From assembly GCA_004022145.1 (NCBI GenBank), contig RCNU01000012.1: DNA of 64,000 bases. The stretch is one strand, 5' to 3'. A program made the position numbers and the translations under genes. The stretch comes from Paecilomyces variotii (taxonomy: Eukaryota). Below the pieces are notes generated by a model, which was not told the DNA's origin, did no database searches, and was given only the letters and a program-made list of their open reading frames with translations. This document shows positions 3,001 to 11,316 of this stretch, piece after piece; position 1 is the first letter of the stretch; each line of letters starts with the position of its first letter.

Positions 3001-6000
3001 GCTCCAGACTGGCACTCGCACGGACAAGATTGTTCGACCGAGAGTCCGATGGACAGTCAGGACTCAGGACTCAGTCGCGACTCTGTGTTGATTTGTCCAA
3101 CCGATCGGGCATTGATCCGCATGCCAAAAGGTTATCTATTACAGTACATAGTTAGCAGGCGGTCCAAACATGATGATTTCCTCAGCCGCATCACTGCGAC
3201 GCTGTCTATTGGATGAAGCGAGGGTATACAGACGACTTGTTGTAACAACGCATACATCGCTTACCCTACTCTTTCTGGAAAACGTTGTGAACCTACCGAG
3301 TTTCGACAACGCCGTCTTAGCTAGGATACACTGAACTGGCAATTGTAAGGCTTGGCACTGAAGCGAGCGCGGCGCCGTTTTCTGATTGCGATGAACAGGG
3401 CCTCGATTGACTCATCATTGGCCTTTTGAGTCTTGACAGGCTCGATCATCTGAACAACTTCGCGGAATCGCGGTAAGCCCAGCCGAGTTATACCTACAGT
3501 ACTTGAACCTAGAGAATCAGAGCACGGTGTTCCTGGACTGGACGAACAGGAGGCCCAGTTCCTCGCCCAGCACCACGCTGTTGGTCCACGAAGCCAACGA
3601 TCAATCTAATGATTATATTCCCAGGGCCGGATTATCAGCACTATGTTGACATCGTCAAGAGAGAATTTTGTCCTTTCACGTCTCCCTGGAAATGTAAGTA
3701 TCGGGGCTAGATATCCGCAGCTTACATGACCACAGATCTGCGTCTTTATTTTCCTACACATGGATTGGTCACCATCGGTCTGTGACTCTGTGTAGATGGC
3801 GCTGGAGACCCGAATCTCCCCAACCAGTCTGGTGGAGCCACGGGGTCGGCGGGATCTCCAGGCCGGATCGAATTTGCGGCGCAGTTGCTAAACCTTCACA
3901 CAAATTATTATTAACAAGACCTGATCGAGTTTGGCTTTCTCGAGGCTTGCTCGCCCGAAGGATCATCATCCTGGCCGGTGGAACTGCTTAATGCACGTGA
4001 ATACCTTTGGCGGCTCTGTGCTGGTGGAGCGAACAGACGGACAATCCAATCCGCAATTCAAGTCCAGACAAGGCGCTTTTTTAGCTTCCCGACGCTTGGG
4101 ACAGATACTGATAATAATAATGGCCTTCTTGAACACAAGCCAATGCGCAAACAGAAGCCAAGACACAGCCTGACCCAGTCTTTCTTTGCCTAATCCATGG
4201 GACCATGCCTTCCGAACCCCGCAGTGGCCATGGACTCTGGAGCTTGCGGGAGGATGACTATCTTTGTTCACTACTCGGCACTGGATCAGCATCGCGGAGA
4301 GAGCAAGCCATCCGGCGGCTTTTCTTAAAGTAGTCCTGCTTGATGGACCGTCGCTAAGAATCGGCGTGGGCTAGGCAGGTAATCTTATGTGACGGAATGC
4401 TCCGCACAACCTAGATGATCAAGCCTTGCCAAGCTCGTAAGAAATTATTATCCGTCGATCGTGGAAAGTAACCTCTTGAAAGCGTCCAGAGCTTGGAAAA
4501 GCGGTGGTGCCTGGGCTCTGCTTACGGCATATCGGGCGTCCTATACAACGAAGTCGTTGAAACAAACCAGCCTACCACTACTGCATCGAACGCATCGAAA
4601 AGCGCCATCGCAGCTTCCGGTTGTTGGGCCCGGACGGGTTCCGCGGGGATGGTATCGTCGCAGGGACTTCTGGGGAAGCGATACGCACTGTAACTACGGA
4701 GTACACCCGGACGTACGTTGGTTAGTCACTGTTAGACCAGGCCGGACTCTGTCCTTGCGTGAGGGCTCATCGGGACGGCGGGTCCTGAGGACTTGGCTCT
4801 ACTCACTCTACTCTAGATAGGCAAGTTAGGCTCGCATTCCGATGGTTGGCTTCTGTTACGGTGATCTTATTCTGGTTATCACAACCATATGACGGGAGAT
4901 GAAACCAGCAGTCGAGAAAAGCCGTTTATCAAAAAATACTATGGGGAGCCTGGTCAGTGATGGATCAATGCACGAAGGAATTGAACCCTGGATGTCCACT
5001 CGGTTCCCGTTCAATCAACGCAAGCCGTATTACACCCGTCAAAGCGTGAGGAAGTTCGAATGTCTGCTAGATCGGGGCCTGACGACTGTCCGGCAGGGGT
5101 CCGTCACAACCCTATCTCTGGGAAGTAATCCCTAGTTGACCCGGGACTCCCAGATTGCTAGCCTAGCTGGGTGCTTAAGCCTCTCCTTCTAAGCCATCCG
5201 TGCGGGTGTCTCTTTAGGTCGTTGTTAGTTCTGCGTCGTCACCCTTGGGCCTTCTTCTTGGCTATTATTCCCCTGGCCGTCGTTCGACTCGTGGCAGCGC
5301 TTAGTCCAACGGGGTCCCCCGACTCAGGAAGAGAGGCAGAGGCCATACTCGTGCAAAGCTATTTCGGGAAAAAGAACGATGGCCGCGGAGAGGGTTAACA
5401 GCAGAGCAAAGCATGGCTCCACCAACGACGACACGAGGAACAGAACCAACATCTCCTCTGCAGCCTATCCTCAATCAATACTGGTCCATTAGGGTCACCC
5501 GTCAGATTCGACGACTTGATAGGACCCTGGGCGACCCCCAGCATAGCCTTTTGCCCTGACCTGATGATCCATCCTCCTCCCGCACAGGTTTCCTATTCGG
5601 AATTCCGCTATGCTATCCATGCTGTCCATCGCGCCGGGGACAGCTCCAGCAGGCATGCGCCATGCTAACTTAATGGCCCAGGATCCACTGGATCATACAG
5701 CAGTGCTATTCACAGTATACACGCGGGACCGCTCTGACCGGTGGACTACGGGGGACATCACGTCTGCCCTGACCGTAATATTTCTCTACGAGACTCAGCC
5801 GCATCAGTCAAATCCTTCATGGTTTTAAGAACGACAATCCAGCCCCGCCGCCCACCCTGGACGCTGCCCCAGCTGGCTGTACCCTTCTAGTTTGAAGCTC
5901 GTCTTGGCGATTCTATCCAAACCTTGGATCCCTGAGAGGTCAGAATCAGATCTCCCAAACCATATCTAGTTGGACCGGTGCGCAGCGTTCTTAAGCGCCG

Positions 6001-6211
6001 CATTGTATAACATATCTGTCTCGTCCGCCCCCAATCTCCCATCATTCTAGATCCACTTCAGATCTATTCTTGTTTACGTTCTTATTCTTTAAATGACCGC
6101 TCCTGTTCCCCATACCCGTACACAAGTATACCTGCAGGATCAACAACGTTGAGCAAGGTTAGCACAGCCAACCGCGCAATTACATATAGATCGTCGCATC
6201 TCCCACACGGA

Positions 6212-9200
6212 ATGGCCAAAGTCTCGACTCGACGAAGCAAATCAACGGAAGCAATCTTTACACCTACCAGTGTCACTTCTCAAACCAGCGTCGACCGCAA
6301 GAAGAGAGTAACCATGCGCCGCACTACCTCTACATCGGACATTCCGACTCCTATTACCTACACACCCACTACACATCGAATAAGCAAGGCGAAGAAGGGT
6401 AAACGGGTTCACGCATGCGGATTCCCTGGTTGCAACAAGGTGTGTTTCCTCCAGAGCTCTCTTCTTGAGTGTCGCTGACGGTAACACTAGGTTTTCACAC
6501 GCGCAGAACACCGAAGGTACGCATACCGCAAGGGAGAGCAGAAGGACCCAAGAGCTGTTCCTAACCATTTGGCTGGTAGACGTCACGAATTGAACCACAA
6601 CCCAGAAGCGTCATTTCCATGCAGATATGAAGGATGCCGAAAGGCCTTCCATCGCCCTGATCTACTTGCGAGGCATATGGAGCGACAGTGAGTACCCCAC
6701 ATTGTGCGGCTTTTTACGGGAGAGCCCCTGACAATGAGATGAATAGTGAGCTTGATGCACAATCTGGTGGTAATGCGAGCCGGCATTGGAAACAACCCAG
6801 TCAATCATCAGTCGTCTCTGATCCATCGAGCGTGGCGGATACCATACCTGCGTGTGCGACTCCAGATTCTCTTCCTGTGGTGAGCTCTGGTTCAATGTCA
6901 ATTGGTTCTATTGTGGCGCCCGGAGTGCACCCTGATCTTGCAAGCGATTATTCGTTGCCCTGGAGTGGGATGGAGATCCCCATGGACCCTCGAGCTACAC
7001 CATTCCCGAACCACATTCGAGAATCCGCAGGAGACAGCCCATTCTACTCTTCGCCCGATACCTGTGGCTCTCCCTTATCAGACGTGCCATCATTTCACCT
7101 TTCGCAGCCAAGGAGTGTTTCTTCTGCTCCGACTTCTGTGATCTTCAACCCGGAGCTGGTGCAATCGCCCCTGCAGATCGATGACGGCTGTGACTGGGAC
7201 CCAATTGACTCTGCCAATATCGTACCATTCTCCCTGGAGGGTGATATGCTTCAACCAGTAGGTGAACCTTCCCTCGGGCCACAGCCCCTAAGAATCGCGA
7301 CTGACAACCAGCAAGACTTTTCAATGCCAGTACCCCTCTCCAACTTGGATGGGGTTGAGTGGTTTGCCCTACGACGAGAGCTTACTTCCGCCCCCGGAGT
7401 CGTTTCAGGGGATGATGGGATGGAAATCATGGACACTATGAAATGGCAAGACTGTTTCGAGAGTTACTGGCGGCATTTTCATCCTTTATTCCCCATCGTG
7501 CATCGACCGACCTTTTTCGCAACAAAACCCAGTCCTTTACTAGCAGGAGCTATGGTTGCCATAGGCTCTCAATATGACAACCGACACAATGCTAAGGAAT
7601 ACTCACTTGCCTTGCTCGAGGCGTGTCTAAAGCTTTTGTCAAAGGTTTGTCAAAATCCAAGGTTAGCTCTAACCGTGGTCACTTTGCTGATGCTTGGATA
7701 TAGAGGACTCCAATAACAAGCCGGTCCCGAATCACCGATATTCAAACGGTCTTTTTACTGGAATACCTGTCGAAGTTTAGATCCCGGAGAGCGGACGTCC
7801 AACTATCCCACCGTTTCCGGAGTCTGTATGGTAGCGTATGTTGATCAATGAGAAAAAAGCAAGTATCGGGAGAGTTTTGGCTGACACCTACTGATTTAGT
7901 ACATGCATGATCGCCACTGGATCTCTCAGAATCCATTCGCTGTTTTGAACACACTCCCAGAAAATCCAAGTCAAGAAGCACTTACGAAGGCGTATAAGTT
8001 TTGGGTTGAACATGAAGCTCGGCGGAGGGTGTTGCAAGCTGCGTTCATTTTCGATGCACAGCAGTCTGCACTATTTGGTCAGCCACGGGTCTTATTGCAG
8101 CAGTCTGCTGTGAGTTCGCGCCTTAGGAAGTCGAGTGTTGGAACCACGGACTTGCCGTTCCCCTGCGATTCAAATCTGTGGGAGACTTGGCATCTGGAAG
8201 ATTGGTTTCGAACGGCTAGGTCGCACAGATCATTGTCATTGCCTTCTATGGCCATGGCTTCAGGTCTACATGGACAACCCAGCTCGCGTCATCTGGATAC
8301 TTTCCAGTGCACTCTCCTTCTCGTGCATAACCTGACCAGTCAGAGATCAGAGAACTACGAGGCATGGCTTGTCCCGAGTGAGGGATACGACCAATATGCA
8401 CCTTCAAGCGCGCCCTCTCAGCCGTGCAGTCTTTTCACGTATCATGCGCTCAGTGCTGCCCGCCATACGCCTTTGCATGCCTTGTTGACTGTTAGCGGGG
8501 AGTCGTGGCTCTTTAACCGAAAGGTACCTCATGAAGAAGACTTTCGGAAGGCCAAAGACACATTACGGCGATGGGCGTCCGACACAGAAGACATTAGGAA
8601 AGCCGTCTGGCATGCAGTTCGGGTTTTGGAATGCGCCGTGTACAATGCGTATCCGAATGCCTTGCTTCGCGACAACGCCCGAACTACAGCGAACCAAGGA
8701 CACAGAGCAACAGGGAGCAGGATCCCCAGATCATCGCCAGCTCTGAGTGCTCCCCTAATCCCGTTACTCGCAGGCGAAGAGGCGGGGACCTCATCTGCTG
8801 CTCGACCAGGCCCACTAGCTATGCTCCACGCGAACTGGGCTCTTTACATTTCGGCGCTCATCTGCTGGGCTTACGGGTTTGATCCTTCCACATCTACAAT
8901 CTCCGCTTCCTACCCTTCGAATATGCTCTCTCGGTCACAAACAGCGATTGCCGCATCTGCACGTTCGTATATCTCGACAATGATCTCACTGGCGCCTACA
9001 TGGCAACAACTCTCACACAATCGGATTCCTGTGACGGTCCGTTGCAATACACTTTCCTTACTTGGATTCATCCGCACTACCCGACTTCAAGAAGGCCGCA
9101 TGGGCGGCCTGCTCAATGAAGGCGAAAGAGTCCTAGCTCGACTTACAGAGACAAGAGCAACCGTCAACGCCGAGGGCAGAAGCATGTGGGAATACCAACC

Positions 9201-9213
9201 GGTATCTTTCTAG
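6212..9213 (+). CDS. C2H2 zinc-finger transcription factor with C-terminal fungal-specific TF (middle homology) domain, ~883 aa, 7 exons
   Basis: Inferred exons 6212-6439, 6491-6516, 6580-6687, 6747-7257, 7312-7644, 7704-7835, 7900-9213 join in frame. Two C2H2 fingers (HACGFPGCNKVFTRAEHRRRHELNH; FPCRYEGCRKAFHRPDLLARHMERH) precede YWRHFHPLFPIVHRPTF and WVEHEARRR...F...D motifs typical of Fungal_trans domains. Confidence 0.88.
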
Positions 9214-10025
9214 TTGACTGGAGTTTTGAACAATTTCGTGATTCGTTTTATTTTCTTCGATTTCCTTCCCTTTGAGTTCAGCGTTTCATTTCACAGCATT
9301 TAGATCTGGGTCCTGGTTTCTTATCTCGCGAGTACAGGTATTAGAGGACGTTTTTGTTTTCAGATCAACATATAACTCTTAGACGGGCATATGAACTGGT
9401 GGTACAGGTGGGAATGTTTTTTTTTTCTTTCGTTTTGTCATCACATTTGAACCATTTCCTGGTTTTCTCGTTTATGCGATTTGCTCAGCATGATATCCTT
9501 TCCCTTTTTGTTAGTTTGTGGTCATTTGGTTTTTTTTCTTCACGACTGGAACGTTACGTATGTATGTATCTATCTACGTGTGTATCTATATACCCCCCAA
9601 CTCCCTCATATGGAGTGTCTTTACTTACCAAACATTCAATCCAACTCATCTATATATATACATATACATATACTCTTTACGTGTGCTTGGCTTTTATCTC
9701 TCTCGAGTAAATATATACCTGTAGAGTAAATCAGTCGTATTATTTGATCACCCTTCCCTCTTCTTAACTACCTCCTTCCCTTCTCTTCTCCACTACGTAC
9801 CACGCTACCTACATCATACGCAGAACCGTATATCTTCGGTCCTAAATGCCAAAGAATGAAATCATCTGATTATAAATAGCCAGTAGTAAGCCTTTCTCGA
9901 TGAACGAGAAGTAATTATTAACTATTCCTCCGACGTGGGGATTAACTAACTCATCATATGGTATGGTATGGTCTAGTATGGGATAGATATACTACTAGCA
10001 TAGCCTCACATACACGCGCACACAC

Positions 10026-10027
<2 letters not shown>

Positions 10028-10069
<42 letters not shown>
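10028..10069. repeat. (AG)21 dinucleotide microsatellite
   Basis: Perfect AG run read directly from the sequence, between two convergent genes. Confidence 0.95.
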
Positions 10070-10072
<3 letters not shown>

Positions 10073-11316
10073 TGAATAGCAATAGGAGAGAATTGATCGA
10101 TGATGGGTTATATGGTGTAAATGTGAGAGTGTATTTTGGGGAGAGAGGTTTTCCTTTCGGGCGGTTATGAACTTTATCTGGGTGATCATGTTTACAAACT
10201 CCGCTGGGAACAGCTTAAGACAGTTAGTTGGATTGAAACTAAACAAGCACGCCATTTTGGCGGGGAAGAGGAATAACGCATGATGGATGGCTGGAGCGTC
10301 CCCGAGTGTCGAGTTAGTAATTATCTCTAGATACGCTAGGATTTTCAAGACTGAGACAATTGAGATTATAGTAGAGTAGCTTATTTGATTTGGTACGGGT
10401 AAAGTCTCTATGTACGAGTTATGGTTCACTATTCATGTCACACCCTATGCGCAAGCCGGCTTCGAACAGATGTGCGTCCAAACGCTTCCAGATATTATCT
10501 CTGGTCATCCACGGCCATGCATTGAAACCTTTTCAGGTGTCAAGGCGGGCACTTCCGGTCGCACAAAGAGACAGAAAGGGTTAAAAAGAAAAAGAAGCCG
10601 GCTCGAAGATTAGATAATGTGACTCTCCAACAAGAGGAAAAAAGAGAAGAAAAATCAAGGCAGTGGGCTGGGAAACAATCACTCAAAGTTGACCAAAACA
10701 ACGCCTTGTTAATACAAAAAGATGCCCGTCATGTTGATCGCTAACAACGTCCAGACTAGACCGGACTTTGGATAGTTTTACTCGACACCGAAAACCGCCG
10801 GTAGGCTCCCATCACGAAAACAACAGCAAGCTGGGTATGGATGGAAAGTCAATGGTTCGCACCACACAGAAGAATCTCACAAAGGAAAGCAAAAGGGACA
10901 TATGGGGAATCGAGTTCGATCGTGCGTGGCTCAGCCGTCGCCGCTGCCTTTTAGCCCCTCTAGTAACACGGGTACTCCGCGGGTGGCATAGGAGCCCGTT
11001 CGGTATTCATCAAGTCTGGGCCGACAGAGCAGGCTGAAGACCACCAATAGTCGCCCGCATCATGTGCACCTCAGTCGTCATAACGCCGGTCAAGATAACC
11101 CGAGAACAGATCTTAGGATTCGGTTCAAGTAGATAAGAAAGGGTAAGAACATATGCAACGGAAGAGTGTCGTTCTCGACGATCAGTGGAGTATCACGGAA
11201 AATAGAACGAAAAGCCAATCGTGAAAAAGGTGATAGTGACATGGAGGGTATCCTCGATAGAGAAAACCTTTCTTTCCTTCGACGAAAGACATTGAGCAAT
11301 TGAAATTTCTCCTAAT

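Follow-up and report, generated by a model that had tools for sequence, protein, structure and literature searches.

A frame-shifting intron and an exon stretch open in two conserved frames in a zinc-finger transcription-factor gene of Paecilomyces variotii

How a transcription-factor gene can carry an intron whose removal puts its regulatory domain out of frame with its DNA-binding domain is the question raised by a locus of the fungus Paecilomyces variotii. The gene lies at 6212-9213 on the plus strand (as do all the parts of the gene described here) of a stretch of 64,000 nucleotides (nt) of contig RCNU01000012.1 (assembly GCA_004022145.1), termed the window, and has two N-terminal C2H2 zinc fingers and a C-terminal Fungal_trans (PF04082) regulatory domain. 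The original prediction, made from the letters of the window, was that intron 4 ends in two competing acceptors, an expected CAG that would give the full regulator and a weaker AAG, 4 nt further on, that would give a truncated form with the fingers only. The roles of the two sites turned out to be reversed, as AAG is the acceptor in every spliced contig from three of three RNA studies. This acceptor, the length of the 41-codon tail that it opens and the stop that ends the tail are conserved across Eurotiomycetes. We consider it fairly probable that the frame-shifting splice yields a conserved, functional short protein and that the regulatory frame is translated as a fusion by way of a minority splice form.

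Four RNA runs from four studies were compared over 6000-9500, out of 24 runs with matches in 6100-9400. All four are sets of assembled contigs, which hold the winning path of each assembly, with minor variants dropped and isoform ratios lost, and the contig pieces were used as listed. The joint 7257^7316, which skips 58 nt between a GT and an AG and is positionally unambiguous, is found in one contig each of runs X3, X4 and X6, the three with spliced contigs, and the depth table is consistent with one contig per run across intron 4. The counts for the two acceptors in these assemblies are 3/3 for AAG and 0/3 for CAG, and minor use would escape contigs. Introns 5 and 6 have likewise been removed from this contig in X3 and X6. 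The transcript contigs run unbroken through both open reading frames (ORFs) described below and extend 5′ of 6212 and 3′ to about 9426-9500. The spliced contigs define seven exons (6212-6439, 6491-6516, 6580-6687, 6747-7257, 7316-7644, 7704-7835 and 7900-9213) and, in addition to intron 4, the introns 6440-6490, 6517-6579, 6688-6746 and 7645-7703, together with 7836-7899 in X3 and X6, where junction positions were moved to GT..AG if the contig alignment had placed the cut at +2. The remaining run, X1, holds only an unspliced, near-identical contig of 12,339 nt that is DNA-like and uninformative on splicing. X1 is a metatranscriptome, and this contig suggests DNA carry-over or the source sample; in the same run, a 151-nt contig from a different organism matches 7331-7409 with four differences and has unlike flanks.

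Why the AAG is used may be read from the layout of intron 4 (7258-7315; 58 nt, GTAGGT...CAAG), all the parts of which had been placed correctly in the original prediction. The donor in use, GTAGGT, is at 7258-7263, the sole CTRAY match within the intron is the branch-site match CTGAC at 7301-7305 with its branch A at 7304, the in-frame CAG is at 7309-7311, 7 nt past the branch A, and the AAG is at 7313-7315, 11 nt past the branch A and 20 nt before a CTCTCC motif. In general, an AG too near the branch point tends not to be used. In the gene's other five introns, taking the CTRAY match nearest that range, the used acceptor lies 12-15 nt past the branch A, and in intron 3 (6731-6746 region) a GAG at 7 nt is skipped and a TAG at 15 nt is used. 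The AAG at 7315 is of a rare acceptor type, because only about 5.7% of 2022 Fusarium introns end in RAG, as given in the available text of that study (PMC5677156). A rare-type AAG is chosen here over a consensus CAG that is probably too near the branch point. Joined to the AAG acceptor, a second GT (GTGAAC) at 7262-7263 would bring the reading back into frame, but as a donor it is poor, with A at +5, and its use is seen in none of the RNA contigs. In the same Fusarium text, +5 is G in 93% of the donors of 2022 introns (PMC5677156).

Two further observations concern the donor end. The first 13-15 nt of intron 4 (GTAGGTGAACCYTC, read as V-GEPS in models that retain the intron; 7258-7272) are kept across Eurotiales, Onygenales and Arachnomyces, well beyond the usual donor consensus. 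In the minimum-energy fold the donor region GUAGGUGAACC (7258-7268) pairs with GGUUUGCCCUAC in exon 5 (7361-7373), a pairing that wobble pairs could keep in Thermoascus and in an Elaphomyces-like sequence. The fold of 7235-7400 is no better than that of shuffled sequences (z = 0.03).

Reading from the ATG at 6212, the exon-4 frame ends exactly at 7257, and the 58-nt splice continues it through 41 codons from 7316 to the TGA at 7439-7441. The first ORF of this mRNA encodes 332 amino acids (aa) with both C2H2 fingers and a 41-residue tail, and lacks the regulatory domain, as had been predicted. Finger 1 (residues 69-91 of the spliced ORF, pattern C-x4-C-x12-H-x4-H) is encoded at 6416-6598 and spans introns 1 and 2, and finger 2 (residues 99-121, pattern C-x4-C-x12-H-x3-H) is encoded at 6620-6747, with its last His codon split by intron 3. 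A Pfam zf-C2H2 match at residues 97-121 of P0076, a P. variotii protein of 332 aa, scores 27.2 bits (cut-off 25.2). The frame with Fungal_trans (7318-9213; 590 codons plus stop, open across the spliced introns 7645-7703 and 7836-7899) sits on the same transcript and is out of frame with the fingers. When mRNAs were rebuilt from the RNA-supported junctions, the two frame-keeping outcomes also came out as anticipated: splicing at the CAG removes 54 nt, keeps the long frame and gives 883 aa, and retention, in frame and stop-free, gives 901 aa. The long frame is continuous over 6661-7716, with the 54 nt up to the CAG in frame and stop-free, and the other frame is open over 7292-7441. The stretch 7316-7441 can be read in both frames, the exon-4 frame giving TFQCQYPSPTWMGLSGLPYDESLLPPPESFQGMMGWKSWTL before its TGA and the other giving the start of the regulatory region (..FSMPVPLSNLDGVEWFALRRELTSAPGVVSGDDGMEIMDTMK). 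The PF04082 match scores 89.6 bits in P0080, a fused model of 881 aa, and is precomputed for P0111, a separate model of 512 aa; P0080 has PF04082 on the same polypeptide as the fingers, whereas in the one mRNA form observed the domain and the fingers lie in different frames.

Conservation of the frame-shifting join was followed in metagenomes and in protein databases. The metagenome scan gave 18 loci, 13 of which have a conserved LSxLDGxEW motif and resolve into seven genomic lineages and one spliced transcript contig, L006, which is Elaphomyces-like by protein cluster and shows the same join. A phase-0 GT donor, an AG 20 nt before the conserved CTCTCC, and an alternative frame open for exactly 41 codons and closed by a stop at the same place are present in all seven genomic lineages, and the expectation that this frame would stay stop-free in relatives is borne out. 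Searching with the 41-residue tail, limited to proteins longer than 72 aa, gave three matches. The first is P0076, annotated as "transcriptional regulator family: C2H2 zinc finger", with a 100% identical tail; its cluster has seven sequences and at least 24 NCBI accessions, all from P. variotii among those listed, and its representative is not identical to the protein translated from the window, with one residue different as judged by eye. The second, P0077, is a T. crustaceus protein of 315 aa whose neighbour is a Fungal_trans protein of 529 aa (genes 5672 and 5671), and the third, P0078, is a 388-aa ORF on a transcript-like contig of 1934 nt that matches T. aurantiacus; both have the frame-shifting join. 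A profile of eight tails searched against 1.84 billion representative proteins gave nine matches, seven of the gene's family and two unrelated, and exon 4 is joined directly to the tail in a Cladophialophora carrionii model (P0148) and in P0151, a 369-aa ORF on a JGI contig of 1631 nt. The further tails known from protein only have 41 or 42 residues, and that of P0151 ends after 37. The offset between the two acceptors, which had been expected to be conserved, is not: it is 4 nt in this lineage and 10 nt in five others, and Thermoascus has no second acceptor.

The original prediction had cautioned that a 41-codon open frame can arise by chance, and for this sequence alone that caution holds: with the main-frame protein and the codon usage of the gene taken as given, P is 0.127. 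It is only the conservation in other lineages that makes the frame non-random. Given each lineage's protein and codon usage, the probability of staying stop-free is 0.07-0.26 per lineage, and that of a stop at the observed codon is 1.0, 0.34, 0.49, 0.12, 0.12, 0.04 and 0.09 in the seven lineages, the latter limited because the stop depends on GTA or ATA and AGR codons in the main frame. The seven are not independent, and multiplying over one lineage per clade gives about 0.007 for openness and about 0.003 for the stop. Reduced synonymous variation over 7316-7441, also foreseen, was found in three comparisons of identical codons at identical residues between the overlap and the rest of the gene: 21/26 versus 107/308 (p = 7e-6), 19/28 versus 77/231 (p = 7e-4) and 20/30 versus 106/302 (p = 1e-3). 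The overlap has 26 changes private to one lineage, and more of them are silent for the tail frame (13) than for the main frame (8); in the stretch that directly follows, 12/17 such changes are silent in the main frame. The main frame is itself constrained within the overlap, where it has invariant residues from P196 onward, and it shows many synonymous differences between distant clades. Both frames look selected, since main-frame synonymous sites vary unusually little within the overlap, and the claim that about 126 nt are read in two frames gains support from this and from the short form in RNA.

Evidence on the full-length protein is of another kind. The downstream frame is open for 590 codons in the window and for 597 in the Elaphomyces-like transcript, and synonymous sites between the two are near background (0.35) and near saturation. 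Conservation in the main frame starts at the acceptor, where there is no conserved start codon, and for that reason we infer a fused full-length protein. The idea that one locus makes a full regulator and a truncated form is borne out by RNA contigs for the short form, and for the full-length form it agrees with this pattern of conservation. In this strain a fusion could be reached through the CAG at 7311, through the GT at 7262 or by retention. As to competition between CAG and AAG, the distances of 7 and 11 nt stand, and a general mechanism does not follow from them, as the tandem is not conserved: Thermoascus has CCG in place of the CAG, and the P. lecythidis model has other residues there. 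In five other lineages an in-frame AG lies 10 nt upstream of the main acceptor. Retention was considered as a conserved route to the full-length protein and rejected, with intron lengths of 58, 58, 61, 62, 61, 58 and 60 nt, out of frame in two lineages and with a stop in one. An exitron was set aside too, conserved open retention being confined to 4/7 genomic lineages. Talaromyces-like ORFs that read through the intron enter the main frame (three), the tail frame (four) or a stop (four). Within one close clade the intron is 61 nt (L004/L005), 62 nt (L007/L008) or 60 nt (L012) long, so that retention reads the main frame, neither frame or the tail frame, respectively, and there are ORF calls, such as P0145, in which the retained intron is read into the tail frame.

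The T. aurantiacus-like contigs have no in-frame AG, and their downstream frame is interrupted by at least three breaks of frame and three stops, the same ones in each of three contigs, while the short ORF and its tail are intact. These contigs (L002:727-3700, L003:3637-6600 and L013) are identical over 3000 nt, and their Fungal_trans frame is a pseudogene. The breaks occur after HPLFP and within the last exon, and the in-frame stops include ILDT-stop-QS. The NCBI model for T. aurantiacus skips the broken stretches and has no Pfam match.

In every assembled transcript intron 4 is cut from the GT at 7258 to the AAG at 7315, with the frame-keeping CAG passed over. We propose that the 332-aa protein encoded by this mRNA is conserved because it has a function, most probably as a DNA-binding form that lacks the regulatory domain. 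The regulatory-domain frame would also be translated, as a fusion with the fingers, which would need a minority splice form that restores the frame, here by way of the CAG at 7311, of the GT at 7262 or of retention and elsewhere by the in-frame AG 10 nt upstream. The balance between the two splice outcomes would then decide how much full regulator is made relative to the form with the DNA-binding part only.

Several results weigh against this explanation. Of the three outcomes named in the original prediction, 7257^7316 is seen in contigs, and the other two, 7257^7312 and retention, are not: no joint 7257^7312 or 7261^7316 occurs among the contig pieces listed for X3, X4 and X6, all of them assemblies, and no contig there covers intron 4, a kind of data that cannot exclude retention. 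No transcript-derived full-length protein near 100% identity is present among the 75 protein matches listed. To call the AAG splice the major form is to say only that it is the winning assembly path. No route to the fusion is conserved: the CAG occurs in this lineage only, the second GT, four bases past the donor, is GC in two lineages, and the intron is in frame and open on retention in only 4/7 genomic lineages. With the background at about 0.33, the synonymous excess peaks in the first 14 codons of the overlap (0.75) and has faded to 0.42 in codons 28-41, and a splicing enhancer could contribute to it. The shift in codon position of the changes is significant only for the window versus L006 (p = 0.016), with p = 0.07-0.68 for the other pairs, and it is not significant outside Eurotiales. 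One comparison of strains gave six silent and five replacement differences in the downstream frame versus six and none in the short ORF, a mild and non-significant relaxation of the downstream frame. Finally, the stop of the short-form mRNA lies 203 nt before two further spliced introns and is followed by about 1.9 kb of trailing sequence, and a stop so placed upstream of spliced introns should attract nonsense-mediated decay.

The strongest rival follows from this last point, because the short-form mRNA looks like a target of nonsense-mediated decay. It holds that splicing at the AAG is unproductive, its mRNA being degraded or inert, that the fused factor is the sole functional product and that the overlap is kept for signals at the RNA level, and it is in keeping both with the position of the stop at 7439-7441, by general knowledge a typical trigger of decay, and with the concentration of synonymous conservation near the acceptor. 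Against it, the AAG form is the one assembled in 3/3 RNA studies, the short ORF of T. aurantiacus is intact after the decay of its long frame, and the tail length and the stop (whose chance is 4-49% in six of the seven lineages) are kept, which signals in the RNA leave unexplained. We consider it unlikely, at roughly one case in six.

A second rival, rated somewhat lower again, is that the gene is split, the 332-aa zinc-finger protein being separate from a Fungal_trans protein made from an internal start or an internal transcript. Database models are drawn in this way, as P0076 (332 aa) and P0111 (512 aa, annotated "Fungal Specific TF") in P. variotii and, for T. crustaceus, as the adjacent genes 5672 and 5671. 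The models of 512 and 529 aa, however, start at MVAIGSQ, inside the conserved domain, and lose the best-conserved block WQDCFECYW..HFHPLFPIVHRPTF, while conservation begins at the acceptor, where no start is conserved (the GMEI Met is absent in Chaetothyriales-like lineages), and the transcript contigs are continuous through both ORFs. At 7437-7441, in this lineage only, the short ORF ends in a stop that shares nucleotides with an ATG of the downstream frame (ATGA); termination-reinitiation there was rejected, as relatives have GTG or GTA in place of the AUG.

That the downstream frame is a relic in P. variotii, no longer translated and leaving the short protein only, seems improbable. Such decay has occurred in T. 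aurantiacus, and the strain differences point the same way, with replacements making up 5/11 in the downstream frame against 0/6 in the short ORF. Against it, 590 codons in the window and 597 in the Elaphomyces-like transcript are open despite near-saturated synonymous sites, and both species use the frame-shifting join, so that the downstream frame has been kept under that regime. Least probable by far is a fusion made by a −1 ribosomal frameshift just past the junction of the AAG mRNA (CCA ACU UUU C), where a four-U run follows the junction in the window, since there is no canonical X XXY YYZ heptamer that could be a conserved slippery site, the U run is absent in Thermoascus (ACTCTCC) and the Elaphomyces-like transcript (AGTCTCC), and the stretch has, as given above, no stable fold.

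A wider form of the preferred explanation, on which the short protein is functional and the regulatory frame is translated as a fusion, can be put forward only tentatively. It would make intron 4 a regulated, spliceosomal frame switch across Eurotiomycetes, in which the branch-distal AG leads to the short form with its selected tail and a proximal in-frame AG or a shifted donor to the full regulator, so that one locus balances a factor against its own competitor, lineages of the T. aurantiacus type having kept the short arm only. If true, this would be a conventional-splicing counterpart of HAC1/XBP1. HAC1, hacA and XBP1 encode transcription factors that change frame and receive another C-terminus once a short intron is removed, with conservation of the overlapping frames; intron 4 resembles these in that removal of a short intron alters the frame and the C-terminus of such a factor. 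The HAC1 and XBP1 introns are cut by Ire1 at non-canonical sites in paired stem-loops. Ire1-type splicing was rejected for intron 4, which is spliceosomal because it has GT..AG ends and a CTGAC branch site, and which has no fold signal. Tandem splice sites (NAGNAG acceptors and GYNNGY donors) are also similar, intron 4 having a pair of AGs and a pair of GTs, each pair with a spacing of 4 nt; that class is defined by the use of both members, and here only the AAG is seen in contigs.

Among described fungal genes the nearest case is AN1569 of Aspergillus nidulans, a Zn2Cys6 factor whose commonest transcript form has a premature stop and would encode the DNA-binding part only, according to the accessible portion of the report (bioRxiv 10.1101/2021.03.09.434684). 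The two are alike in that the leading transcript form, which here means the winning assembly path, would give a truncated DNA-binding form, the full-length form being presumably scarce. They differ in that the cause in AN1569 is intron retention, with no conserved second frame reported in that portion, whereas at this locus splicing removes the intron and shifts the frame, and the length of the new tail is conserved across a whole fungal class. Dual-coding regions that arise by alternative splicing have been described in human genes (PMC13160074; bioRxiv 10.64898/2026.05.28.727796) and, as far as the available text of these reports goes, share with this locus one exon read in two frames set by an upstream splice choice, with constraint in both; they are in animal genes, and here only one mRNA form, that with the AAG, is found in contigs. 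The architecture of two N-terminal C2H2 fingers with PF04082 is that of HxnR (A. nidulans AN11197), its paralogue AN6733 and Klf1 of Schizosaccharomyces pombe, and PF04082 has been argued to be an intramolecular regulatory domain (PMC5746545). This likeness is one of architecture and does not imply orthology, and hxnR differs in having a single 75-nt intron, with no isoforms described in the part of that report available (PMC5746545). A hxn-type cluster was rejected, as the neighbours in the window are a kinase fragment and CoA-transferase, PH, Mtf2/PPR and WD40 proteins, with no hxn-type genes.

Truncated fungal isoforms with the DNA-binding part only and human dual-coding exons are thus already known, and what is new is that an intron that is spliced out, a shift of frame and a second-frame tail conserved across a class of fungi occur together. 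In the literature searched, outside of which lie supplementary files, neither this gene nor a dual-coding splice switch in any fungus was found described. Should both products be made, the locus would be a rare example in fungi of one conserved exon that is read in two frames and a simple way to pair a transcription factor with a version that lacks the regulatory domain.

Public annotations of the gene conflict, giving a fused protein of 881-906 aa, two genes or, in many models, an intron kept as coding. In P. variotii strain No. 5 the fused model P0080 has the junction LQPV/DFPMPVP, which requires the GT four bases downstream of the donor in use, and in-frame models of relatives (HPV/EPSVPIPLS) likewise imply the GT at 7262 as the donor. 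Among 33 orthologue models aligned, 17 retain intron 4 as coding, 14 splice it in frame and two are irregular; the closest long protein among the matches listed is from P. lecythidis (91% identity). The RNA and the conservation together explain the conflict, in that the transcripts truly shift frame, and the case warns against inventing in-frame introns to mend such frames during annotation. Downstream of the gene, a GA/CT dinucleotide repeat at 10030-10170 is read as RERERE and SLSLSL frames.

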